This document shows, piece after piece, positions 1,869 to 60,112 of a DNA stretch of 64,000 bases (position 1 is the stretch's first letter; the number at the start of each line of letters is the position of its first letter). The notes below the pieces were generated by a model. That model searched no databases, was not told the DNA's origin, and was given only the letters and a program-made list of their open reading frames with translations. Origin of the DNA: Actinomycetota bacterium (GTDB lineage Bacteria > Actinomycetota > Actinomycetes > S36-B12); assembly GCA_030681835.1 (NCBI GenBank), contig JAUXRN010000032.1:2487-66486 (forward strand), read 5' to 3'. The position numbers were made by a program, and so were the translations under genes.

Positions 1869-3497
1869 CTAGCGCGCCGAGTCGCGAAGGCCAAGGAGTT
1901 CTGAGCTCCTTTGTCGCATCTCAACTTTTCGAACCTTTCCAGTGACAGTAAGTGGGAAATCTTCCACAACGATGACGTACCGCGGGATCTTGAATCGCGC
2001 AAGCCGTCCGTCCGCGAAAGCGGCAATGCCAACGGCGTCCACTGCTGGAGCACCAGGACGCATCCTGACCCAGGCGCACAACTCCTCTCCGTAGTCGGCG
2101 TCTGGAACGCCAACAACTTGGACATCTTCGATATCCGGATGGGTGAACAGGAACTCTTCGACTTCCCTCGGATAGATGTTCTCTCCCCCTCGAATCACCA
2201 TGTCCTTGATTCTGCCGACGATTGCGCAGTATCCGTCCTCCTGCATGACAGCAAGATCGCCGGAATGCATCCACCCGTCTCTGTCGATCGCCTCAGCTGT
2301 GAGCGACGGTTCTCCCCAGTAGCCGAGCATCACTGAGTAGCCGCGGGTGCAGAACTCTCCGGGTGTCCCACGTTCGACCGTCTCCCCCGTATCGGGATCG
2401 ATCACTTTGATCTCGACGTGTGGATGTGCTCGGCCAACGGATTCCGTCCGATGTGTCAGGTCGTCATGGCGAGAGGTCTGGCACGACACGGGAGACGTCT
2501 CCGTCATGCCGTAGGCTATTGCGACCTCCGACATATGCATCTCAGAAATGCATCGACGCATCACCTCAACTGGACACGGCGAGCCGGCCATGATCCCAGT
2601 TCTAAGAGTCGAGAGATCGCGGTTCGCCACCGCCTGCGCTCGCAGCATCGCCACGAACATCGTCGGCACCCCGTAGACAGCGGTGCAGCGCTCACGTTCG
2701 ATAGCAAGCAGCGCTGCCTCCGGATCGAACGCGACGCTGGGAATGACGATCGTCGCGCCGTGGCTGATACATCCGAGATTCGCCATTACCATGCCGAAGC
2801 AGTGGTAGAACGGGACCGGCACAGCGAGCCGGTCCCGGGATGTTATGCCTATAAGTTCGGTCGTAAAGAATCCATTGTTGAGAATGTTGGCATGGCTGAG
2901 GGTCGCGCCTTTGGGAATGCCCGTCGTTCCGGACGTGTACTGAATGTTGACAGGGTCCGATGGATGCAACTCCCGATCTCGCTCCGCAAGCATTTCGTCA
3001 TCCTGAGGAGTGCACGGCGACAGGAGATGGACCCATTCAACGCTGTCGAAGAAGACCACGTGCTCGAGGCTCGGCACCTCACTTCGACACTCGCTGAGCA
3101 TCCGGTCGTACTCCGAAGTTTTGAACTGCCGGACCGCGAAAACCCATCGAGTCCCCGATTGTTTGAGTGCGAACTCGAGTTCACGAGTCCGGTACGCAGG
3201 GTTTATCGTCACTAGGATCGCGCCAACTCGTGCGGTCGCAACTTGGACGACGACCCACTCCGGGCAGTTTGGTGCCCAGATCCCGATTCGGTCGCCCGCT
3301 TGTATTCCGGCGTGAACTAACCCTTTAGCGACGGCGTCGACATCTGCGGCGAGCTCGCTGTAGGTCCAACGACGCCCACTAGCCACGTCAACCAAGGCGT
3401 CGTTCCCCCCGAAGGCGGTGGCGGCACGACGAAAGGTTGCTCCAATCGTCTCGTCGAGCAACGGCGTCGAACTAGGCCCAGCAGCGTAACTTCTCAT
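1869..3497 (-). CDS. AMP-dependent acyl-CoA synthetase/ligase (FadD-like)
   Basis: 542 aa. It has the AMP-binding motifs [18 protein letters not shown]-like (AYGMTETS) and a GDL...DGY...GRIKD core. An RBS (GGGAGGG) lies upstream. Confidence 0.85.
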
Positions 3498-3606
3498 TCG
3501 ATTACCCTCCCTTGTCGTCGTTCGAGACTGCCTCCGCCGAGCACAACGACTTGCGACCGAGGAAGAGCGAACTCTCAGATTTCTTCGTCACCTTGATTGC
3601 TAGATC

Positions 3607-4614
3607 TCAGCCTCGACCGATCGCTATCGGCCGCGACTCTCGTACCGACTGCCAGGCGGCGATCCCTATTGCTAGAGCCGATCGTCCGTCAGCACCTGAG
3701 ATCGGCGATTTCCCTCCATCTGCGACGTAGTCGATGAATGCAGTCCATTCGTCTAGGTAGGACTCCCGATAGCGGTCTAGGAAGAAGTGCTGGAGCGTCG
3801 CGCCTACCTCGCCGTCGACGGTAATCAAGCGCGCCGCGTCTCGCGGAACGTTCTCCGACATCGCCACGCCCGCGGACCCGAATACCTCAACACGCTGGTC
3901 GTATCCGTAGACGGCCTGGCGACTGTTGTCGATAGTTGTGAGCGCGCCATTCGCATGCGTCAGGACGATGACGGCGGTGTCGACGTCGCCAGCGTCTGCG
4001 AATGCGGGGTCGATGAGTGCTGCGCCCTTGGCGAAGACCTCGACGACAGGGGATCCGACGACAAATCGAGCCATGTCGAAATCGTGGATCGTCATGTCGA
4101 CGAACATGCCGCCGCTGTTGACGACGTAACTAAGTGGTGGTGGCTCGGGATCGCGACTGGTGATGCGAGCGAGGTGAACATCGCCGACGTCCCCCAGTTG
4201 CACCCTCATCTGGACGGAACGATGGCTCGGGTCGAAGCGGCGATTGAAGCCGACCATGAACGGCACTCCTGAACTCTCGATAGCGCACAGCGCGCGATCG
4301 ACTTCATCGAGGTCGAGGCTGATCGGCTTCTCGCAGAAGATCGCTTTCCCTGCTGCCGCGGCCCGGACGATTAGGTCGACGTGGGTGGAACTCGGGGTGC
4401 AGATCGCGACCGCGTCGATATCGGGAGAGTCGATTAGTTCGTCGACGGACAGCACCCCAACTCGGAGGTCGTCCGCGACTTCCACGGCTAGATGCTCCTG
4501 GGCGTCCGCGACGGCAATGACAGTTGCCCGCAGCGTATGTCGCGTAAGGATCTCTGCGTGCATCCGGCCTATGCGACCGACGCCTGCAATGCCGATGCGC
4601 ACCTGGGACGTCAC
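3607..4614 (-). CDS. iolG: inositol 2-dehydrogenase (Gfo/Idh/MocA family)
   Basis: It has an N-terminal Rossmann motif IGIAGVGRIGRMH, FCEKP and GFNRRFD motifs, and sits in the iol cluster. Confidence 0.75.
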   Translation of the reverse strand: MTSQVRIGIAGVGRIGRMHAEILTRHTLRATVIAVADAQEHLAVEVADDLRVGVLSVDELIDSPDIDAVAICTPSSTHVDLIVRAAAAGKAIFCEKPISLDLDEVDRALCAIESSGVPFMVGFNRRFDPSHRSVQMRVQLGDVGDVHLARITSRDPEPPPLSYVVNSGGMFVDMTIHDFDMARFVVGSPVVEVFAKGAALIDPAFADAGDVDTAVIVLTHANGALTTIDNSRQAVYGYDQRVEVFGSAGVAMSENVPRDAARLITVDGEVGATLQHFFLDRYRESYLDEWTAFIDYVADGGKSPISGADGRSALAIGIAAWQSVRESRPIAIGRG

Positions 4615-50828: not shown

Positions 50829-52979
50829 AGCCAGCCGGTCGTTTGCCGACTTCTGCGAATCGCCGTGAATGTCAATGGTCGGCAGCAGCCTGGCAAGCCA
50901 CGCCGGTAGCCACCAGTTGGCCTTGCCCATGAGCGTCATCGTCGCGGGGACAAGCACCATGCGCACGATCGTCGCGTCGATGAGGATCGCGGTGGCCAAC
51001 CCCAGGCCCATCATCTTGGTCGCTGGGTCCTCGCCGAACACGAAACTGAAGTACACGCAGATCATGATGAGGGCGGCCGACGTGATGACCCGGGCCGACG
51101 ATGCGATGCCACGCACGACGGATGCCGTGATGTCGCCTGTGCGCACGTACTCCTCGCGGATGCGCGAGAGCAGGAAGACCTCGTAGTCCATCGACAGTCC
51201 GAACAGCACCGCGAACATGAACATCGGGATGAACGGGATCACGGGGACCGTCGACTCGAGACCGATGAGGTTCATGCCCCATCCCCACTGGAACACCATG
51301 ACGATGACGCCGTACGCGGCGCCGATGCTCAGCAACGTCATGCCCGCAGCCTTGAGGGGTACCAGCACCGACCGGAACACCACCAGCAGCAGCAGGCAGG
51401 ACAGGAGGATGACACCGGTGATGAACAGCGGGAGGCGGTCACGCACCTTGTGGCCGATATCGGCCCAACTGGCCGTCTGACCGCCGATGTGGGCGGAAGC
51501 GGCACTGCCGGCGAGCACCGGTGGGAACACATCCTCACGAAGTCTCTCGATTGTCGCGACTGTGGCGTCCTCCTGCGGAGCGGTGGTGGGGAACGCGAGC
51601 ATCGTGGCGACCCCCGCGGAGGTCTGTACCTCGGGGTCCGTCACGAAGGCGATCCCTGGATCCGCAGCGACGGCCTCGCGCAGCGGCTCGACTACGGCCG
51701 GGTCGGCCGACACGTCGACTGCGATCAGGAGCGGACCGTTGATGCCGGGACCGAAGCCCTGGGCAACGAGGTCGTAGGCGAGGCGCTCGGTGCGTGACTG
51801 CGGCAGCGAGCCCTCGTCGGGGAAGCCCAGGCGCAGGGCCAGCACGGGAGCGGTGAGGGCAAGCAGGAGCGCCGTCGTGCCGACGAGGTAGAACCAGGCG
51901 TTGCGGGAGACATGCGACCCCCACCGCATCCAGCGGGCACTGACATGGTGAGCGTCGGCCGTGACGATCCCGCGGCGGCCGCGGCGGTTGATGCGTTGAC
52001 CAGCGACACCCAGCAAGGCCGGCAGCAGGGTCACCGAAGCCGCGACCATGACGAGCACGATGATCGAAGTGGCGATGCCTGCCGCGGTCATGAAGGGGAT
52101 GCCCGCAAACGCCATTCCGAGGACGGCGATGACGACCGTCCCGCCCGCGAAGATGACCGTCTGGCCCGCCGTGGCAACTGCACGGCCGGCGGCCTCGGGC
52201 ACCGGAAGCCCTTGCGCGAGGAACTCGCGATGCCGGGTAACCAGCAGGAGGGCGTAGTCGATGCCCACACCGAGCGCGATCATGCTGGCCATCTGTGGCG
52301 CCCAGCTGGGGATGTCGAAGATGCGAGTGACGAGCGCCATGGAGCTGACGCCTACGACTAGGCCGATCAAGGCGATCCCGATGGGCAGGCCCATCGCGAT
52401 GAGAGATCCGAATGCGATGAGCAGGATGATCATCGCGGCGATCAGGCCGACCAGCTCACTGGTGGCGGAAGCGGTTTCCTCGAACGTGAAGAAGAGGTCA
52501 CCGCCGGCCTCGATCTGTAGGGGCGACCCGACCCGCGCCTCGGCGACGGCAGCCTTGAGGCTCTCGAGGTCGGCGGTGGTGAGGTCGGCAACCATCGGGT
52601 ACTGCAGGCGGACGATTGCGACGGTGCCATCAGGCGATACCTCCTCGGTGGTCTCCAGTACGTGCGGCAGTCCGGCAACGATGGACTGGACCTCGTCGAG
52701 TGCAACCCGGGCGGCGGGCGAGGTTGTGAAGGTGGTGGCGGCATCGAGCGGCGTCATGACGACCTGCGCGGTGATGCCGCCGCCGGTCGCGCCCGCGGAC
52801 TGAAGGAGGTCGACGGCGGCCTGGGAGTCCAGCCCCGGCACGACGAAGGAGTCCTCCATCTGCTCGCCAAGGCCTACCGAGGCGCCGACAACGAGTACGG
52901 CTGCGACCACCCATGCAGCGATGACCGCCCACGTGTGCGTCGCGGCGAATCTTCCCCAGCGGAACAGGTAACTCGACAT
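50811..52979 (-). CDS. MMPL-family (RND superfamily) membrane transporter
   Basis: Start at MSSYLFRWGRFA. 722 aa with a 2 x 6 TM plus two extracytoplasmic loops pattern and GVGIDYALLLV / GLSMDYEVFLL motifs. Confidence 0.85.
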   Translation of the reverse strand: MSSYLFRWGRFAATHTWAVIAAWVVAAVLVVGASVGLGEQMEDSFVVPGLDSQAAVDLLQSAGATGGGITAQVVMTPLDAATTFTTSPAARVALDEVQSIVAGLPHVLETTEEVSPDGTVAIVRLQYPMVADLTTADLESLKAAVAEARVGSPLQIEAGGDLFFTFEETASATSELVGLIAAMIILLIAFGSLIAMGLPIGIALIGLVVGVSSMALVTRIFDIPSWAPQMASMIALGVGIDYALLLVTRHREFLAQGLPVPEAAGRAVATAGQTVIFAGGTVVIAVLGMAFAGIPFMTAAGIATSIIVLVMVAASVTLLPALLGVAGQRINRRGRRGIVTADAHHVSARWMRWGSHVSRNAWFYLVGTTALLLALTAPVLALRLGFPDEGSLPQSRTERLAYDLVAQGFGPGINGPLLIAVDVSADPAVVEPLREAVAADPGIAFVTDPEVQTSAGVATMLAFPTTAPQEDATVATIERLREDVFPPVLAGSAASAHIGGQTASWADIGHKVRDRLPLFITGVILLSCLLLLVVFRSVLVPLKAAGMTLLSIGAAYGVIVMVFQWGWGMNLIGLESTVPVIPFIPMFMFAVLFGLSMDYEVFLLSRIREEYVRTGDITASVVRGIASSARVITSAALIMICVYFSFVFGEDPATKMMGLGLATAILIDATIVRMVLVPATMTLMGKANWWLPAWLARLLPTIDIHGDSQKSANDRLALSGRR

Positions 52980-53180
52980 GGTGGCTACTCCCGGTATCTC
53001 AAGCGCGTCGGTCTGGTACCGACCCGGATACAGGGTGATCGCCCGAAGGTCCGTGGGGATCGGCCTCCCGGCCGGAACTCCCTCGGCCATGCGGTGGGCT
53101 CTGGGCTCGTCCTTTCGACCGATCCGTCCGCACCCCACAGCATCTACGCTGCAGGCGTGGTGCGATCCGGATTGCTCTCC

Positions 53181-54302
53181 ATGTGGGATGAGCCGGCTGT
53201 TCCAGATCCCCCGCGCCGCGTGTGGCGTGACTGGGTCCTCATCGCCGTGCTCGAGACCGCTGCCGTCCTCGAAGGCATCCTTCGTCCGGACGTGACATGG
53301 CGACCGATCGTCACCGCCCTGTGCATGGCGCTGATCCCGTCGCTTCTCTGGCGTCGGACTCACCCGTTGGCAGTCATCGTCGTCGTCTTCGGTGCCATCA
53401 CCGTGGTTGACGTGCTCGCCCCGGTCACTCCCGACGACCCCGTCGGTCTGTACGCCACCGCGTTCGTGCTGCTGCTGCCGTATGCGCTGGCTCGGTGGGG
53501 CTCAGGGCGCCACATCGTCATCGGTCTCGCAGTCACCATTGGGCTCCACGTCGTGCGCACGCTCGTGCACCTCAACGTGGGCGACATGGTCATTGGCATG
53601 CCGTTCCTGCTCCTGCCCGCTCTGCTCGGCCTCGCCGTTCGGTACCAGCTCAGTTCGCGCGCTCGCGAGCTCGAACAGGTGACGATGCGCGAACGCGAGC
53701 AGCTGGCCCGGGAGCTCCACGACACCGTCGCGCACCACGTCTCCGCGATCGTCATCCAGGCGCAGGCGGGGCGCGTCACGGCCGGCGTCCGGCCGGAGGC
53801 GGCCCTCGAAGCGCTTCGCGTCATCGAGTCGGAGGCCTCGCTCACTCTTGCGGAGATGCGCGACATCGTTGGGACCCTGCGCACCGGGGAGGCGGCAGAG
53901 CTGGTTCCTCATCGCGGTGTGGCCGACCTGCCGGCCCTCGCGGGCCTGGCTGGCGGCTCGCCACTCGTCGACATACGGGTATCCGGCGACATGGATGACC
54001 TGCGCCCGTCGGTGGGAGCGGCGGTTTACCGCCTCGCGCAGGAATCGATCACCAACGCCGTACGGCACGCGCGCCACGCAACTCGGGTCGATGTGCATGT
54101 GGTCGGCGACGCGGACGCTGTCCGCCTCACCGTCGTCGACGACGGCGACCCGACGTCGGCTGCCCGGTCACCCTTCGGTTACGGGATCGTGGGGATGAAG
54201 GAGCGAGCGGCCCTGCTGGGCGGGACCCTCGAGGCTGGTCCCGATCCCGGGCGCGGCTGGACCGTCTCGGCAGTCCTTCCGCGTGCGGGAGGCGGGCGAT
54301 GA
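53181..54302 (+). CDS. sensor histidine kinase (HisKA_3/NarX-DesK type) with multi-TM N-terminus and no obvious ligand-binding domain
   Basis: ~5 TM segments, then the H-box ELHDTVAHHVSAIVIQ and the HATPase region (NAVRHA...DDG...GYGIVGMKERA). Confidence 0.85.
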   Translation: MWDEPAVPDPPRRVWRDWVLIAVLETAAVLEGILRPDVTWRPIVTALCMALIPSLLWRRTHPLAVIVVVFGAITVVDVLAPVTPDDPVGLYATAFVLLLPYALARWGSGRHIVIGLAVTIGLHVVRTLVHLNVGDMVIGMPFLLLPALLGLAVRYQLSSRARELEQVTMREREQLARELHDTVAHHVSAIVIQAQAGRVTAGVRPEAALEALRVIESEASLTLAEMRDIVGTLRTGEAAELVPHRGVADLPALAGLAGGSPLVDIRVSGDMDDLRPSVGAAVYRLAQESITNAVRHARHATRVDVHVVGDADAVRLTVVDDGDPTSAARSPFGYGIVGMKERAALLGGTLEAGPDPGRGWTVSAVLPRAGGGR

Positions 54303-54952
54303 TCCGGGTGCTCGTCGCTGACGACCAGGAACTGGTCCGCACTGGCCTCACGATGATTCTCGAAGCCCAGCCCGACATCGAGGTGGTGGGCAGTGCGGCC
54401 GACGGACGCGAAGCGGTGGCGATGGCGATGGCGTTGCGGCCCGACGTGTGCCTCTTCGACATCCGTATGCCCGAGGTCGACGGCATTGAGGCCACGCGCC
54501 GACTCGCTGGTGCCGGAGTGGCCGACCCCATCGCCATCGTCGTCATCACCACATTCGACCTTGACGAGTACGTCCACGGTGCGTTGAAGGCGGGGGCTCG
54601 GGGCTTCCTGCTGAAGGACTGTGGGCCTGATCTGCTCGTTCAGGCGATCCATGCCGCGGCCGATGGGGATGCGCTCATCGCACCCAACGTCACGGCCAGG
54701 CTGCTTGCCGAGTTCGCTCGATCGGGGGCGGGTCCGGCACCGGCGCAGCCGATCGCGCCACTGACCAGCCGCGAGGAGGAGGTGCTCGTCACGCTGGCCA
54801 AGGGGCGCACGAACGCCGAGATTGCCGACGAGCTCCACATCAGCCTCAGCACGGTCAAGACGCATCTCACCAGCCTCATGGGCAAGCTTGGCGCCCGGAA
54901 CCGCGTCGAGATGGCGATGTGGGCTTACGAGACCGGACGCGTGCGGGCATAG
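54299..54952 (+). CDS. NarL/LuxR-family response regulator
   Basis: MIRVLVADDQELVR...DVCLFDIRMP receiver plus a C-terminal LuxR HTH (LTSREEEVL...EIADELHISLSTVKTHL). ATGA overlap with the HK. Confidence 0.9.
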   Translation: MIRVLVADDQELVRTGLTMILEAQPDIEVVGSAADGREAVAMAMALRPDVCLFDIRMPEVDGIEATRRLAGAGVADPIAIVVITTFDLDEYVHGALKAGARGFLLKDCGPDLLVQAIHAAADGDALIAPNVTARLLAEFARSGAGPAPAQPIAPLTSREEEVLVTLAKGRTNAEIADELHISLSTVKTHLTSLMGKLGARNRVEMAMWAYETGRVRA

Positions 54953-55055
54953 GCGTCGTGGGATGGTCATGGCGACGCGACGACCACCGGGGCCACCCGA
55001 ACTCCGGGAGCACCGTGGTGGATCCTTGGAAGGTGACCATCGAAAGGACCAAGCA

Positions 55056-55853
55056 ATGACCGCGTCCCCGGCAGCCGTGTCAGACAGCGCCACGATCAGT
55101 CAGCTCGGCAGGATCCGGCGATGGAACGTCATCGCAGGGTTCGCGCATCTCGCGCAGCTGTTTGCGATCCTGGTGCTCGCCAACGATTTCACCTTGCCGG
55201 TGACCGCGAGCTACATGGCCGGGCCTCCCGGCACGCCCTCATCCGATCCGGTCGTATTGTTCGACACGCGGATCGCCTGGGGTGTAGCCCTCTTCTTCGG
55301 ACTGTCGGCCGTGTTCCACTTCGCTGTGTCCCTGCCGCCCTTCAACCGGCGATACATGGCCGGGTTGGTCGCCCAGCACAACTACTTCCGGTGGGTGGAG
55401 TACTCGCTCAGCTCTTCGGTGATGATGGTCCTCATCGCCCAGATCGTCGGCATCTCCGACGCCGCCGCGCTCATCGCCATCTTCGGTGTCAACGCGTCCA
55501 TGATCCTGTTCGGCTGGCTCCAGGAGAGGTACGAGACCCCCGGGAGTGGCGGATGGATGCCGTTCGTTTTCGGATGCATCGCAGGCATCGTCCCCTGGCT
55601 CGCGGTCGCGCTCTACGTGATTGCGCCGGGCTCGACCACCGGCGCAGAACCGCCCGCCTTTGTTTACGGGATCGTCATCTCGCTGTTCGTCTTCTTCAAC
55701 TCCTTCGCCCTCGTCCAGGTGTTGCAGTACAAGCGTCTGGGCAAGTGGTCGAACTACCTCAACGGGGAACGCACCTACATCACGCTCAGCCTGGTGGCCA
55801 AGTCGCTGCTCGCGTGGCAGATCTTCGCTGGCACCCTTGCGCCTGGTTCGTGA
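55056..55853 (+). CDS. heliorhodopsin (7-TM retinal protein, inverted topology family)
   Basis: 265 aa, nearly colinear with heliorhodopsin 48C12 as recalled: ANDFTLPVT, GPPGT, FRWVEYSLSSSVMMVLIAQ (counterion Glu), FGVNASMILFGWLQERY, FGCIAGIVPW, FFNSFALVQ, GKWSNYL, SLVAKSLLAWQIF (Schiff-base Lys). Confidence 0.9.
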   Translation: MTASPAAVSDSATISQLGRIRRWNVIAGFAHLAQLFAILVLANDFTLPVTASYMAGPPGTPSSDPVVLFDTRIAWGVALFFGLSAVFHFAVSLPPFNRRYMAGLVAQHNYFRWVEYSLSSSVMMVLIAQIVGISDAAALIAIFGVNASMILFGWLQERYETPGSGGWMPFVFGCIAGIVPWLAVALYVIAPGSTTGAEPPAFVYGIVISLFVFFNSFALVQVLQYKRLGKWSNYLNGERTYITLSLVAKSLLAWQIFAGTLAPGS

Positions 55854-56389
55854 GCCATGCTGTCGACCAGTTCCTGAGGGCGGTCGTGACCGACCAGTCC
55901 TGGGTGTTCCCCGAGGTCCCAGGCCGAGACCTGCTGATACATGAGTACCTGCTGCCGGGAGAGTTCCCGGCGAAGGTCAGCATCACGATCATCGCCTTCA
56001 AGCAATGGCAGCAAGGCCAGGTCGACGCGTGGATCAGCAGGATTGCGCAGGAGGGGATCCCGCAGACGCCTCACGGGTGCACCGACCTCGACCAGGTGAT
56101 CCTCGAGTTGCCGGTCATATCGGGGCGCTATCAGGTCGTCCGCCGGTTCATCGATGGCGGCATGGCTGCCAGCATCCGGGACCCTGAGGTCCTCGCACGG
56201 ACCATCACGCTGTACGGCTCTGTGGATCGCTTCTGCTCGCCGCTGGGAATCTCGTCTCGCGAGGACGTCTCCGTTCGGGTCGTCCGGCGCGATGGCTCAG
56301 TGGTGTGGGGAACCACAGGGCGCGTCAGCGAGCCGGGCATCGTGGACCTGCTCGTGGCACTGGGAGGGATCGATCCCTCGGCGCAGTGA
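55850..56389 (+). CDS. hypothetical protein (179 aa) translationally coupled to heliorhodopsin
   Basis: The GTG at 55850 overlaps the heliorhodopsin TGA (GTGA). GC3 is high throughout. It has no TM segment or signal peptide. Family not recognised; there is a vague thioredoxin-fold/ATP10-like feel (ITIIAFKQW...VRVVRRDGSVVWGTTG). Confidence 0.6.
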   Translation: MSHAVDQFLRAVVTDQSWVFPEVPGRDLLIHEYLLPGEFPAKVSITIIAFKQWQQGQVDAWISRIAQEGIPQTPHGCTDLDQVILELPVISGRYQVVRRFIDGGMAASIRDPEVLARTITLYGSVDRFCSPLGISSREDVSVRVVRRDGSVVWGTTGRVSEPGIVDLLVALGGIDPSAQ

Positions 56390-56412
56390 TCGGAGCGGGT
56401 ACTGCCCTGTGC

Positions 56413-56853
56413 TCAGGTGGCGGCGAGTCGTGCGGCCAGGCGGGTGATCGACGTCTGGAATCCCTTGCGGGCGGCAGCCGCAACGGGCCGTGCAAGAAAC
56501 TGGGGCACTCCGGGAACGCGAATGTCCTCGACCCAGGTGAGGCGTGAGGTGGAGTCACCGGTCGAGGCGACCGACAGGTGGACCTGCCCGGTCAGCACGG
56601 GGCCGATCTTCGTGATGCGCACGGTCATCGCCGCTGGATCGAGTTCGTCGACGCGCATGCGGTCCGGCAGGGCAAGGGGCCCGATACCTGAAGTGGCGAC
56701 AAACTCGGTGCCTGGCCCACCGTCGCCGGAGATGACCTTCACCCGGGTCAGGGGCACCCAATTTGCGTGGCCTCTCCAGTCGATCAGCTCGCCGAAGACG
56801 ACATCGGCAGGCAGTGGCAAGTCACGTATGACCGTGAAGCAGACACTCGCCAT
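56413..56853 (-). CDS. SRPBCC (polyketide cyclase/dehydrase-like) family protein
   Basis: 146 aa with the typical pattern V...L..W..W.P.... Confidence 0.7.
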   Translation of the reverse strand: MASVCFTVIRDLPLPADVVFGELIDWRGHANWVPLTRVKVISGDGGPGTEFVATSGIGPLALPDRMRVDELDPAAMTVRITKIGPVLTGQVHLSVASTGDSTSRLTWVEDIRVPGVPQFLARPVAAAARKGFQTSITRLAARLAAT

Positions 56854-56903
56854 GAGATTGATCCTTCGTTTCGTTGTTGCGCCGTCCGTCCGTCCGTGCT
56901 TCC

Positions 56904-57284
56904 CTAGCCGTCGACGATGACCTCACCGTCTCTCACCGATGCGGGCAGGACGGTCAAGGGCGCCGGCGACTTGCCCATCGCGATGAGCCGACGCGACCAC
57001 GTGGGGGCCTTCAAGCCGGCGAAGCCCGGAGTCCAATCCAGGTTCTGCCCCGAGCAGACGTCGAAGCTCGAGTTGTGCCACGGACAGGTGATGACCCCGT
57101 TGTCATAGCCTCCCCGCGGACCTCGGCTCAGACTGAGCCCGGCATGGGGGCACCTGTCCCTCACCACGCAGACCTCGTCGGGGGACTGGGACCGGCGGAC
57201 CACGAGATACGCGTCGCCGTCAATGGTGACTTGCGTGGGCTCGTCCACGGCGAAATCGGTGAGCAGACCCAGTGACGTTGGCAC
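56904..57284 (-). CDS. Rieske [2Fe-2S] domain protein
   Basis: CPH (RDRCPHAG) and CPWH (ITCPWHNSSF) ligand boxes. Start proposed at GTG 57284. The upstream part of the raw ORF overlaps the photolyase promoter and start. Confidence 0.7.
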   Translation of the reverse strand: MPTSLGLLTDFAVDEPTQVTIDGDAYLVVRRSQSPDEVCVVRDRCPHAGLSLSRGPRGGYDNGVITCPWHNSSFDVCSGQNLDWTPGFAGLKAPTWSRRLIAMGKSPAPLTVLPASVRDGEVIVDG

Positions 57285-57341
57285 ACGGCCACAGTACGCG
57301 TTGCCGACGGGCTCGCACGCTGGGCGGCGGGCGGGGGAGGG

Positions 57342-58835
57342 ATGCGATTGACTGGGGTCGTGACGAGGCGCTGGCTGTTCGGCGACCAGCTCGGCCCGCA
57401 CTTCCTGGACGACCACGACCAGCCGGTGCTGATGATTGAGTCACGCGAGGTGTTTGCCCGTCGCAGGTTCCATCGAGCGAAGGCCCACCTGGTGCTTTCG
57501 GCAATGCGCCATCGGGCGGCGGAGCTGGGCGAGCAGTGCGTGTATGTGCGGGCCGCCAACTACACGGTGGCGCTGGACCGCATTGGTGAGCCGCTGAGCG
57601 TGTGCCACCCGACGTCCCGTTCGGCCCTCACGTTCGTCCTGGGGCATGGCGACATCGACATCCTGCCGGCGCGTGGCTTCGCGACGTCAGCTGATGACTT
57701 CGCACGCTGGGTGCAGTCCCGCGGGCGCAGGCGACTGCTGATGGAGGACTTCTACCGAGACTCGCGACGTCGGCTCCGAGTGTTGATGGATGGCGAGGAG
57801 CCAGTCGGGGGCCGCTGGAACTTCGACGCCGACAACCGGGAGCCACCACCCCGTTCGTCATCGCTCGGCGTTGCCGAGCCGGCATGGCCCGTGGAGGACG
57901 AGATCGATCAGGAGGTGCGCGACGACCTGGATCGGTGGCAGCGCGATGGGCACGTGAGGTTTCTGGGCGTGGACGGACCTCGGCGTTTCGGCGTCACCCG
58001 CGATGAGGCGCTGGCCATTCTCGACCGCTTCATCACCCATCGCCTACCCAAGTTCGGCCCGCACGAGGACGCAATGCTGTCCGGTGATCCCTGGATGGCG
58101 CACTCGATGCTGTCGGCGCCGATGAACCTGGGCCTGCTCGAGCCCGTTGAGGTCGTCGCGCGGGCCGAGGGTGCCTATCGGCGTGGCGAGGCCCCGCTGG
58201 GGTCCGTTGAGGGGTTCATCCGGCAGGTCCTGGGCTGGCGCGACTTCGTCTGGCACCTGTACTGGCATCTGCCGGCGTCGTACCGCGACCTCAATGAGCT
58301 CCGCGCGACGGAGCCCCTGCCGGACTGGTTCGCCGAACTCGACGCGGGCTCAGTCGATGCGGCCTGCCTGTCCGGGATCCTTGCCGACGTGCGCGATCAC
58401 GGCTGGGTGCACCACATCCCGCGGCTGATGGTGTTGGGCAACTACGCAATGCAGCGCGGGTGGGACCCAGCGCAGGTCACTGACTGGTTCCATCGCGCGT
58501 TCGTCGACGGGTACGACTGGGTGATGGTGCCCAACGTGGTCGGGATGTCGCAGTATGCCGACGGCGGCATCCTGGCGACCAAGCCGTACGCCGCCGGGGG
58601 CGCCTACATCAACCGGATGGGCGACTATTGCCGTGGCTGCCGCTATGACCCCCGCACGAGGGTCGGGGACGACGCCTGCCCGTTCACAGCGGGCTACTGG
58701 TCCTTCTTGCACCGCAACCGTGAACTCCTCGCCGGCAACGCACGCCTGGCCCAGCCACTGAGCGGACTGGCCCGACTCAACGACCTCGAGGAAGTCCTCG
58801 CTCAGGAGTCCGCGCGCGGGTCCTCTGCTCCCTGA
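57342..58835 (+). CDS. FeS-BCP cryptochrome/photolyase family protein (PhrB/CryB-like, bacterial (6-4) photolyase type)
   Basis: Colinear with Agrobacterium PhrB as recalled: GDQLGP, SAMRH, PVGGRWNFDADNREPP, VEGFIRQVLGWRDF, HHIPRLMVLGN, PNVVGMSQYADGG, and the Fe-S Cys cluster CRGCRYDP...DACPF. Confidence 0.9.
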   Translation: MRLTGVVTRRWLFGDQLGPHFLDDHDQPVLMIESREVFARRRFHRAKAHLVLSAMRHRAAELGEQCVYVRAANYTVALDRIGEPLSVCHPTSRSALTFVLGHGDIDILPARGFATSADDFARWVQSRGRRRLLMEDFYRDSRRRLRVLMDGEEPVGGRWNFDADNREPPPRSSSLGVAEPAWPVEDEIDQEVRDDLDRWQRDGHVRFLGVDGPRRFGVTRDEALAILDRFITHRLPKFGPHEDAMLSGDPWMAHSMLSAPMNLGLLEPVEVVARAEGAYRRGEAPLGSVEGFIRQVLGWRDFVWHLYWHLPASYRDLNELRATEPLPDWFAELDAGSVDAACLSGILADVRDHGWVHHIPRLMVLGNYAMQRGWDPAQVTDWFHRAFVDGYDWVMVPNVVGMSQYADGGILATKPYAAGGAYINRMGDYCRGCRYDPRTRVGDDACPFTAGYWSFLHRNRELLAGNARLAQPLSGLARLNDLEEVLAQESARGSSAP

Positions 58836-60112
58836 AATGGCTGTGGCCCACGGGCGGCGCCGAGAGCTCCGTCGAGGACGGCGCGGAAGTCGATGGTGGC
58901 GGAGATGCTGGTGAGCAGGGCGAGCATCCCGGTGACTGCTCGATGCTCCAGCAGCAGGCCCGGCGGGAAGGTCAACTTGCCGACGTTCTGCAATGACGCT
59001 GCCGGGTCGGACCAGCCATCGGCGCGCCCGGTCATCCACTCGGACGTGAACTGGAACTCCTCCTGCTCGTAAGGCGTGAGGTCGATCGCCAGAAGTGCCA
59101 CGAGTTCCTCCGCCGTCGTGGAGTCGACGAGCATTCCCGCGTCCAGCCACATCTGTCGCAGGCCGTCGAGGTCATCGGCGGCGGCGTACTCGAACGTCCG
59201 CACGAAGAGGTCGGTGAATGCGCGGGCGGGATGCCCGACCGAGCCGAAGTCCAGGACGCCGAGGGAGCCGTCGTCGAGCAGGCGGTAGTTGCCCGGATGC
59301 GGGTCGGCATGGATGGCTCCCACGAGGTGCGCGGACCACAACGTGAACCGAGCGAGGCCCCGGCCCGCTGCATCGCGTTGCTCCTCTGGGGCATCGGCGA
59401 GGCTTGAGTACGGAATGCCCGGGAGCCATTCGGTCACGAGCAGCGTGGGCTCGGCGAACAGGACCCTCGGGATCGTGACCACGCCCGGGTGCACCTCGCT
59501 CCACGCCTTGCGGAAGGTCTCCTGCCAGCGAGCCTCGCGCGTGTAGTCGAGTTCCTCCCACAATCGCTCCGCGTGCTCGTCGAGCAGGGCCTTCACGTCC
59601 AATGTCGGGAGCAGCCGGTGGATAAGGGGGATGAAGGTCCGCAACTGCAGCAAGTCCGCGCGGACGATGCGGTGGGCGTCGGGGTACTGGATCTTCACGG
59701 CAATGGGAGTTCCGTCTGGCCACGTCCCGGCATGCACCTGGCCGAGGCTGGCGGCGGCGATCGCATCCGGCTCGATGTGGGTGCCGGGCGGGAGCCCCAC
59801 GACGAGGGCCTCGACCTTGGACCACGGACGCGGTCGCGCGTTCTCATACAGGCGTCCGAGCGAGGCCAGCATGGCCGCCTGCTCCGGCGGGAGGGTGGAG
59901 GAGAAGAGCGCCAGGATCTGGCCGAACTTCAGGGCGGGACCCCGCGCCTTCGCCAGTGCGCTGGTGAGGGACTCCACCGATGCCTGCATCGCATTGCCGT
60001 ACGCGGCGTCGCGATCGGCTCCAAAGGCGGTCGCCGTCGCGGCTGAGGCGAAGCGGGCACCTGACTTCACCGGGACAGCAGCGAGCGAGGCCGCGCGAGC
60101 AAATAGCCCCAT
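58802..60112 (-). CDS. ABC1/UbiB/AarF-family atypical protein kinase
   Basis: LKFGQILA...AAASLGQVH...AVKIQYP...HADPHPGN...LDFG. Start at MGLFAR, 6 nt after AGGAGA. Confidence 0.85.
   Translation of the reverse strand: MGLFARAASLAAVPVKSGARFASAATATAFGADRDAAYGNAMQASVESLTSALAKARGPALKFGQILALFSSTLPPEQAAMLASLGRLYENARPRPWSKVEALVVGLPPGTHIEPDAIAAASLGQVHAGTWPDGTPIAVKIQYPDAHRIVRADLLQLRTFIPLIHRLLPTLDVKALLDEHAERLWEELDYTREARWQETFRKAWSEVHPGVVTIPRVLFAEPTLLVTEWLPGIPYSSLADAPEEQRDAAGRGLARFTLWSAHLVGAIHADPHPGNYRLLDDGSLGVLDFGSVGHPARAFTDLFVRTFEYAAADDLDGLRQMWLDAGMLVDSTTAEELVALLAIDLTPYEQEEFQFTSEWMTGRADGWSDPAASLQNVGKLTFPPGLLLEHRAVTGMLALLTSISATIDFRAVLDGALGAARGPQPFQGAEDPRADS

Follow-up and report, generated by a model that had tools for sequence, protein, structure and literature searches.

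ASRT, a small soluble cytoplasmic transducer of about 125 aa with an all-β structure, is encoded immediately 3' of the Anabaena sensory rhodopsin gene within one operon, and the Htr transducers consist of two transmembrane (TM) helices plus HAMP and MCP signalling domains. The function of heliorhodopsin (HeR) is still debated, and the few functional results stem from testing operon neighbours: HeRs have been proposed to modulate such neighbours by direct binding via cytoplasmic loops, the bound neighbours being glutamine synthetase (GS; bound by AbHeR), photolyase (TfHeR) and the OmrDE ABC transporter (OcHeR) (PMC9529153, PMC9769723, PMC11109279). Here we describe the open reading frame (ORF) directly downstream of a HeR gene in a 64,000-nt stretch of an Actinomycetota genome (assembly GCA_030681835.1, contig JAUXRN010000032.1, forward-strand positions 2,487 to 66,486; hereafter the window, to which all coordinates refer unless a locus is named). 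Its product, a rhodopsin-linked, ATP10-like bacterial protein of thioredoxin fold without membrane anchor, is a HeR neighbour that earlier surveys do not list, and we interpret it, with a probability of roughly 45%, as a cytoplasmic accessory of HeR that docks on it and is controlled by light.

HeR neighbourhoods are already known as promiscuous. Applying criteria of <10 bp and same strand, Bulzu et al. found glutaredoxin, GSHPx, glyoxalase, catalase, DICT and histidine kinases (PMC8612252). The ten groups of Cho et al. comprise GS, NAD+ synthetase, photolyase, MerR, TerC, ABC transporter, SDR, alpha/beta hydrolase, DUF2177 and DUF2238 (PMC11109279), while Chazan et al. singled out DegV and DUF2177 and proposed a lipid-related role for HeR neighbourhoods (10.1101/2021.02.16.431466). 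The ATP10-like family is listed in none of these three surveys (PMC8612252, PMC11109279, 10.1101/2021.02.16.431466); two of the three classify neighbours by Pfam, and the HeR-linked clade goes unrecognised by Pfam and NCBIfam models. Our literature search likewise found no paper joining heliorhodopsin with ATP10 or thioredoxin-like partners. Atp10p itself, the mitochondrial Fo assembly factor, faces the matrix and binds newly made Atp6p, a polytopic membrane protein (PMC12315970).

The reading frame behind heliorhodopsin

The upstream gene matched PF18761 (Heliorhodopsin) over the whole model (1-242 of 242, E=2.2e-98 in a Pfam scan), is named heliorhodopsin HeR by NCBI (MDP1876321.1, in an Actinomycetota metagenome-assembled genome, MAG) and runs from an ATG at 55056 to a TGA at 55851-55853. 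Its translation retains the motifs WVEY and SLVAKSLLAWQ, which, from knowledge of HeR 48C12, we take to hold the counter-ion Glu and the Schiff-base Lys, respectively. At its 3' end (cgcctggttcGTGAgccatg at 55840-55859; ggttcGTGAgcc at 55846-55856) the stop codon overlaps a GTG at 55850-55852, which is in frame with an open frame ending at the TGA 56387-56389. The first-pass annotation of this DNA had pointed out the overlap, and all of its sequence facts proved correct; its further step from a 4-nt overlap to stoichiometric co-expression is not supported, as such an overlap means co-translation and neither 1:1 stoichiometry nor physical binding. HeR and the downstream ORF form one transcription unit, being on the same strand with either an overlap or a 32-nt gap. 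A promoter/terminator consensus scan of 54200-57000 found no site, such a scan being weak for a high-GC actinobacterium and hence uninformative, and an Rfam scan of 52000-59000 gave sub-threshold chance matches only.

The ORF (55850/55886-56389) is a real gene, as judged from its conservation, selective constraint, codon signature and confident compact fold. An exhaustive profile search recovered 1969 representatives of 50%-identity clusters at E<=1e-3 (1019 of these at E<=1e-10), and a large protein collection yielded 149 homologues at E<=1e-3 (best 1e-97), all of them "hypothetical" and none with a Pfam domain. Comparison with ten orthologues gave dN/dS values of 0.13-0.39, and G+C content at the three codon positions was 0.67/0.44/0.83, a pattern missing from the other two frames. 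Long ORFs do arise easily in a genome of 66% GC, and the same frame is open for 422 codons back into HeR; however, a spurious ORF is already refuted by the roughly 2000 cluster representatives together with the dN/dS range, GC3 signature and fold, and we give this alternative next to no weight. The product is a leaderless (cytoplasmic) soluble protein of roughly 18 kDa: a hydropathy scan found no TM segment or signal peptide, the maximum Kyte-Doolittle 19-residue window being 0.98 compared with 2.3 for HeR. These values bear out the earlier description of a 540-nt frame with G/C-ending codons, no TM segment and no signal peptide.

In the closest relatives the junction between the two genes is compact. 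By DNA alignment it reads ATGA in loci L015, L017 and L006 and GTGA in L174, and in L174 and the clean-ATGA loci the conserved N-terminus M-S/T-D-Q-S-W-x-F-P comes straight after it; start/stop overlap with HeR is kept in L003-7, L014, L015, L017, L098, L100 and L174. The window, its sister MAG (L014) and L176 share an in-frame junction insertion of 36 nt in the same alignment, and with it a further in-frame start codon apart from the overlapping GTG, namely GTG 55886 in the window (32 nt past the HeR stop, preceded by GAGGG) and ATG in L176 (preceded by GGAG). Since the junctions of L015, L017, L006 and L174 are clean while those of the window, L014 and L176 carry the insertion, the ancestral arrangement was a 4-nt start/stop overlap. 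A tandem-duplication origin of the insertion was considered, as CGACCAGT..CCTG can be seen twice by eye, but a repeat finder gave no confirmation and the idea was dropped.

Most homologues are 160-167 aa long and start at the equivalent of 55886 (around query residue 13 in the alignment). The orthologues of L174 and L176 are called at 167 aa, and the NCBI annotation gives 179 aa in the window MAG (MDP1876322.1, hypothetical protein) and 164 aa in the sister MAG. The window protein is either 179 or 167 aa long; for the window only, the second start with its own Shine-Dalgarno-like motif is no less plausible than the overlapping GTG, which may not be the start used in this genome.

Fold, ATP10 relationship and conserved site

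AlphaFold2 modelling based on 31 family members gave a pLDDT of 91 and a pTM of 0.86, with confident structure from residue ~20 to the end and disorder in the N-terminal ~13-20 residues. Foldseek comparison of this model with the PDB, a check suggested by the first-pass annotation, returned thioredoxin-fold proteins exclusively, of the TlpA, Etrx1/2, ResA, Sco and peroxiredoxin types (top 50 matches: probability 1.00, E ~4e-6 to 1e-4, TM 0.43-0.57, identity 9-16%), and the matches include the N-terminal β-hairpin extension. Sequence searches with the window protein found no Pfam match even at E<=10, no NCBIfam match and, in a sequence-profile search of the PDB, 0 matches at E<=10; its homologues are all unnamed.

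Relatives of the protein nevertheless reach the ATP10 model PF05176. Six of 31 close relatives matched it weakly, P0072 aligned collinearly with profile positions 96-254 of 256, and 41 of the 149 remote representatives retrieved by the family profile at E<=2e-28 matched it at E<=0.01 (best 8e-12). Among ten fusion or long members scanned individually, P0174 (32.8 bits) and P0148 (23.5 bits) exceeded the gathering score of 22.3, and the family profile retrieves these two proteins at E=1.4e-34 and E=7e-38, respectively. The Redoxin model was matched by a single one of the 149 remote relatives (E=0.005). The window protein falls within a bacterial branch of the ATP10-like superfamily that is large and uncharacterised, and the thioredoxin-fold/ATP10-like resemblance that had been offered as speculation was right at the superfamily level.

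The only cysteines of the window protein, C77 and C129, are both at variable positions, and the family alignment shows neither a conserved cysteine column nor CXXC, CXXXC or peroxidatic Cys, which excludes thiol-redox chemistry. The region of the thioredoxin active site reads F50-K-Q-W-Q-Q55-G-Q-V58-D59 in the window protein, and the family signature is AF-x-[RQ]-x-[QH]-Q55-x-x-V-D59-x-W61, E86-x-P88, R98..I-D102-G-G-M105 and T118-x-T120-x-Y122. Conserved positions comprise A49, F50, Q54/H, Q55 (99%), V58, D59 and W61 (100%), followed by E86 (98%), P88, R98, I101, D102, G, G104 and M105 (99%), and finally T118 (99%), T120, Y122, G149 and G157. Read from the secondary-structure register of the model, Q55-D59 would lie at the N-terminus of helix α1, where thioredoxins have CXXC, and T118-Y122 would form strand β3, beside the usual cis-Pro loop. 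The model suggests a conserved polar cluster at the canonical active-site end, which we regard as a putative ligand-binding or non-redox catalytic site.

Linkage to heliorhodopsin across the family

Family loci were taken from GTDB species representatives (80), metagenomes (80) and individual protein look-ups (16), and scanned for HeR by tblastn with the window HeR and a Chloroflexota HeR. When all ORFs within 2.5 kb of the family gene were clustered over 145 non-redundant loci, HeR was the commonest genuine neighbour family (23/145), the only larger cluster being the antisense shadow of the family gene itself. For a linkage tally, loci were collapsed to 95%-identity clusters and called unlinked if at least 1.2 kb on both sides carried no HeR; 33 clusters had flanks too short to judge. 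Eight of the HeR-linked clusters fell into the close clade and ten into clades of <55% identity. The first-pass annotation had held that widespread homologues unlinked to HeR would speak against a partnership; this applies in part, as the homologues are indeed widespread, with ~2000 representatives, and only 18 of 73 informative clusters are linked. We estimate the chance of a HeR within a 10-kb flank, in a ~3-Mb genome with one HeR, at about 0.3%. The HeR association is real, covering roughly a quarter of the sampled family, and a functional tie between the family and HeR is well supported.

Within the closest Actinomycetota clade, eight clusters are HeR-linked and two or more are unlinked. 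Two relatives with an ORF 84% identical to that of the window (L174/L175) conserve the order HeR-ORF-SRPBCC-Rieske-DPRP-ABC1, whereas L003 and L006 conserve the HeR-ORF pair alone, with kinase/regulator, MMPL and ArsR-SRPBCC genes reshuffled around it, indicating that the junction is stabler than its surroundings.

Chloroflexota family members are 45-51% identical to the window protein. In this phylum HeR was found divergent from the ORF at a distance of 315-809 nt (L038, L042, L043, L045, L056, L060, L115, L120, L125, L137, L144), divergent from an SDR-ORF operon (L143, L146), a fasciclin-ORF operon (L057, L074) or a fasciclin-SDR-ORF operon (L165), co-directional with gaps of about 90 nt (L169) and 209 nt (L156), and convergent (L048). 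The SDR gene occurred at 16 of the 145 loci, always directly upstream of the family gene and on the same strand, and truncated SDR remnants lie between HeR and ORF in two of the direct divergent loci (L056, L137). The encoded SDR is of the LPOR/retinol-dehydrogenase-like group, its best NCBIfam match being PRK06197 and its best PDB matches 3rd5 and light-dependent protochlorophyllide reductases.

Several further observations concern these loci. The pair of SDR and family gene was seen in L143 (SDR 3037-3900, ORF core 4001-4402), L146, L165, L161, L034, L131 and others, often divergent from HeR. One Chloroflexia contig (CAWGWF010000001.1) carries two family paralogues (L032, L034), neither within 5 kb of HeR; Chloroflexota thus hold at least two paralogue types, each HeR-linked in other genomes. 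In L057 (4063-4632), L074, L165 and L161 a separate FAS1 gene with signal peptide lies between HeR and an ORF without one, so that the two products would face opposite sides of the membrane.

Across the wider family, an N-terminal signal peptide or TM anchor was present in about 30 of 126 remote representatives, the remainder being leaderless. Six proteins (P0172, P0174, P0182, P0201, P0237, P0247) combine a signal peptide, one or two fasciclin domains and the ATP10-like domain, in either order, and P0204 has an N-terminal SRPBCC domain fused to the ATP10-like domain, P0207 carrying a fragment that resembles the SRPBCC part. A LigB dioxygenase was a neighbour at 7 loci, and a luciferase-like monooxygenase was also a direct neighbour. 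Given these leaderless, secreted and fused forms and types of neighbour, the ATP10-like domain is a general module found on both sides of the membrane, often beside proteins dealing with hydrophobic or aromatic small molecules.

Single cases include a family gene directly 3' of a Caroten_synth (PF04240) membrane protein gene (L002, 5250-5972, 28-nt gap) and another directly 3' of a dodecin flavin-storage protein gene (L001, 5654-5953, 47-nt gap), both pigment- or cofactor-related. P0136, P0148 and P0161 share a C-terminal extension without Pfam match; these ~130 aa, seen also in P0132 and P0143, contain a conserved VEQFEFAFDPRFR..LGITP.TAHVTVT..RFGPW and are an unnamed domain recurrently fused to the ATP10-like domain. 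A search with full-length P0174 retrieved mostly Planctomycetota FAS1 proteins, with the ATP10-like domain in 1 of 119 matches (P0273), the fasciclin domain having dominated the outcome, which is thus a poor guide to the taxonomic spread of secreted members. Ten remote cluster representatives, all metagenomic, carried "hypothetical protein" annotations only and no taxonomy. The SRPBCC fusion was also considered as a Rosetta-stone link to the SRPBCC gene of the window; the two SRPBCC sequences share 26% identity (E=0.01), and the link was kept as a hint only.

On the reading that we prefer, the window protein would be made together with the HeR receptor and would dock on its short, basic cytoplasmic loops, and the conserved pocket, whether ligand-binding or non-redox catalytic, would be switched or stabilised by long-lived photo-activated HeR. 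Such a pattern would parallel what has been reported for GS, photolyase and OmrDE as clients of HeR, with some lineages having placed a widespread, HeR-independent protein under HeR control. We infer direct binding or a transducer role from the conserved linkage; the breadth of the family and the start codon, which is ambiguous in the window, weaken the case. Other findings weigh against it as well. No HeR lies near the family gene in 55 of the 73 informative clusters, and these include close relatives: a 77% identical ORF has none within 5 kb (L016, where the gene directly 5' appears from its sequence to encode a large glycoside hydrolase), L102/L103 have none despite sufficient upstream sequence, nor do L094, L096, L099 and L101, with shorter flanks, and the entire clade of 56-65% identity is unlinked, with a small lipoprotein gene upstream and a GH43-like gene downstream. 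Secreted, anchored and fasciclin-fused relatives indicate that the domain can act where the cytoplasmic face of HeR is unreachable. The mostly divergent linkage in Chloroflexota is equally compatible with shared regulation and with binding, and divergent transcription argues for co-regulation rather than stoichiometric coupling. Because most family members are unlinked to HeR, a universal role as HeR transducer is unlikely for the window protein.

These points lend themselves to a different explanation, which we consider a real if lesser possibility: the protein may be a co-regulated pathway member that makes no contact with HeR and has a small hydrophobic molecule (retinoid, carotenoid or lipid-derived) as its ligand or substrate within a light or photo-oxidative-stress regulon. 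It would account for the divergent Chloroflexota genes with their shared intergenic region, for the tight pairing with the LPOR/retinol-dehydrogenase-like SDR at 16 loci and for the majority of the family being unlinked to HeR, and it agrees with the lipid-related proposal of Chazan et al. (10.1101/2021.02.16.431466). The company kept by the family points the same way, with SRPBCC (the P0204 fusion and neighbours), Caroten_synth (L002), dodecin (L001) and LigB (7 loci) as hydrophobic-ligand neighbours or fusions, and in the model the conserved polar pocket would resemble a ligand or catalytic site more than a docking surface. However, the start/stop overlap survives several rearrangements in Actinomycetota, which is tighter than regulon membership requires, and no family member has a known ligand or activity.

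The superfamily relationship to ATP10 brings up a chaperone, which would bind nascent HeR on the cytoplasmic side and aid its membrane insertion, retinal loading or oligomerisation, with coupled translation delivering the protein on site. Atp10p offers a precedent, being matrix-facing and attaching post-translationally to a polytopic membrane protein (PMC12315970), and the start overlapping with HeR in the closest clade would suit such a role. We nevertheless hold it improbable, because HeRs of many organisms can be produced in E. coli and fold there in the absence of such a factor (e.g. PMC7807009) and most HeR genes have other neighbours (PMC11109279; DegV/DUF2177, 10.1101/2021.02.16.431466); moreover, most family members have no HeR nearby, the window protein lacks the membrane anchor of Atp10p, and no ATP synthase genes were seen in any neighbourhood gene call. 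Fortuitous synteny, inherited in a few related lineages and devoid of functional meaning, might be suspected since the Actinomycetota loci share HK/RR, MMPL and ArsR-SRPBCC genes in shuffled order, hence come from related genomes, and closely related MAGs from a single survey account for many of the Chloroflexota loci. It is nonetheless very improbable in view of at least five distinct architectures in two phyla, a HeR-ORF adjacency that outlasts rearrangement of all flanking genes, and the rank of HeR as top neighbour family against a chance adjacency within a few kb that we estimate at ~0.1-0.3% per genome. Compared with these alternatives, the cytoplasmic accessory remains our favoured reading. 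A stronger version of it, in which the leaderless clade is a dedicated HeR partner in Actinomycetota and Chloroflexota, a transducer or light-gated effector that binds HeR directly and couples its photocycle to retinoid or lipid chemistry performed with the neighbouring SDR, seems unlikely to us; if it were true, mitochondrial ATP10 would be a specialised offshoot of an older bacterial thioredoxin-fold family that docks onto polytopic membrane proteins.

Surroundings of the locus and comparison with known systems

The gene order in the window is MMPL transporter (minus strand), HisKA_3 kinase, NarL/LuxR regulator, a 103-nt gap, HeR and the ORF, followed by SRPBCC (minus), Rieske (minus), DPRP (plus) and ABC1 kinase (minus); coordinates are collected in Table 1.

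Table 1. Features at and around the heliorhodopsin-ORF junction of the window
Feature	Position	Strand	Basis
Histidine kinase (HisKA_3 + HATPase_c), co-directional	~53172..54302 (start approximate)	+	Pfam
NarL/LuxR-type response regulator (Response_reg + GerE)	54299..54952	+	Pfam
Heliorhodopsin (HeR) gene, 265 aa	55056..55853	+	Pfam PF18761; NCBI MDP1876321.1
GTGA overlap, candidate GTG start sharing TG with the HeR TGA stop	55850..55853	+	Sequence; junctions of relatives
ORF long form, 179 aa + stop, ATP10-like thioredoxin-fold protein	55850..56389	+	Translation; NCBI MDP1876322.1
36-nt in-frame insertion where HeR and ORF meet, absent from L174, L015 and L017	~55855..55890 (boundaries ambiguous by a few nt)	+	DNA alignment
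Shine-Dalgarno-like GAGGG, 5 nt 5' of GTG 55886	55876..55880	+	Sequence
ORF short form, 167 aa + stop, alternative GTG start	55886..56389	+	Homologue N-termini and lengths
SRPBCC (Polyketide_cyc2) protein, convergent	56413..56853	-	Pfam, E=4.5e-11
Rieske [2Fe-2S] protein, longest-ORF coordinates	56904..57416	-	Pfam PF00355
DPRP, cryptochrome/photolyase-related	57342..58835	+	Pfam PF04244, E=1.7e-36; synteny in L174/L175

The start of the regulator overlaps the kinase stop by 4 nt, and the regulator ends 103 nt 5' of the HeR start; histidine kinase/response regulator (HK/RR) pairs also occur within ~5 kb in L003 and L006, though not adjacent to HeR. The kinase/regulator pair beside the window HeR fits the association of HeR with two-component systems of Bulzu et al. 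(PMC8612252). On the other side, the SRPBCC stop lies 23 nt from the ORF stop, and an SRPBCC gene is also found 3' of the ORF in L174, L175 and L176. The Rieske protein is 126 aa long in the L174 gene call, with synteny in L174/L175. DPRP is a second photoreceptor-type gene, located about 1 kb downstream of the HeR-ORF pair, and cooperation of HeR with photolyase has been reported elsewhere (PMC9769723). In L176 (3537-3968) the HeR upstream of the ORF is called at 143 aa, which could be a frameshift, an assembly error or a decaying HeR. Three freshwater MAG contigs with homologues of 59-62% identity (L018, L021, L025) are titled 'Bifidobacterium breve', a taxonomy that looks mislabelled.

A HeR neighbour that recurs in two phyla and in several arrangements turns part of the question of HeR function into a simple experiment. 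It also draws attention to a bacterial ATP10-like branch of about 2000 50%-identity clusters with a sharply conserved non-cysteine site, and to the module of LPOR/retinol-dehydrogenase-like SDR and fasciclin around Chloroflexota HeR genes.

Compared with ATP10/Atp10p, the window protein shows a remote collinear sequence relationship, established via relatives above the Pfam threshold, and has in common a thioredoxin-like fold without redox cysteines and a site of action on equivalent sides of the membrane, the matrix for Atp10p and, by prediction, the cytoplasm for the window protein. It differs in being bacterial, below the gathering score of PF05176 (22.3 bits) and without any Pfam match, and in lacking a TM segment, whereas Atp10p is membrane-anchored (PMC12315970). 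The adjacent membrane-protein gene is that of a rhodopsin, and no ATP synthase genes appeared in any neighbourhood gene call, which argues against a role in ATP synthase Fo (subunit a/Atp6) assembly; the bacterial branch, moreover, is also fused to fasciclin or SRPBCC and is sometimes secreted. The best structural matches, TlpA, ResA, Etrx, Sco and peroxiredoxin, share the fold and the N-terminal extension, but the window protein has no active-site Cys, signal peptide or anchor, would, by the register of the model, carry Q55, V58 and D59 in that region, and gave no Redoxin, AhpC-TSA or SCO1-SenC match in Pfam. The glutaredoxin and GSHPx genes found beside HeR (PMC8612252) likewise encode small thioredoxin-fold proteins on the same strand with the same kind of junction as the window ORF; unlike the window protein, which lacks cysteine chemistry and represents another branch of the fold, these are genuine thiol-redox enzymes known to Pfam.

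Among rhodopsin partners, the Htr transducers differ from the window protein, for which Pfam and hydropathy gave no TM segment, HAMP or MCPsignal. ASRT resembles it more closely as a small soluble cytoplasmic protein encoded directly downstream of a rhodopsin, the kind of role envisaged in the first-pass annotation; however, the folds are unrelated (all-β versus the α/β thioredoxin fold), and HeR belongs to another rhodopsin family than the partner of ASRT, one with inverted topology. The HeR clients GS, photolyase and OmrDE differ in that their activities are known and their binding has been measured, while the window protein is known from sequence and model. Like these clients, the ORF lies on the same strand directly beside helR, and its family combines a broad HeR-independent distribution with linkage to HeR in some lineages.

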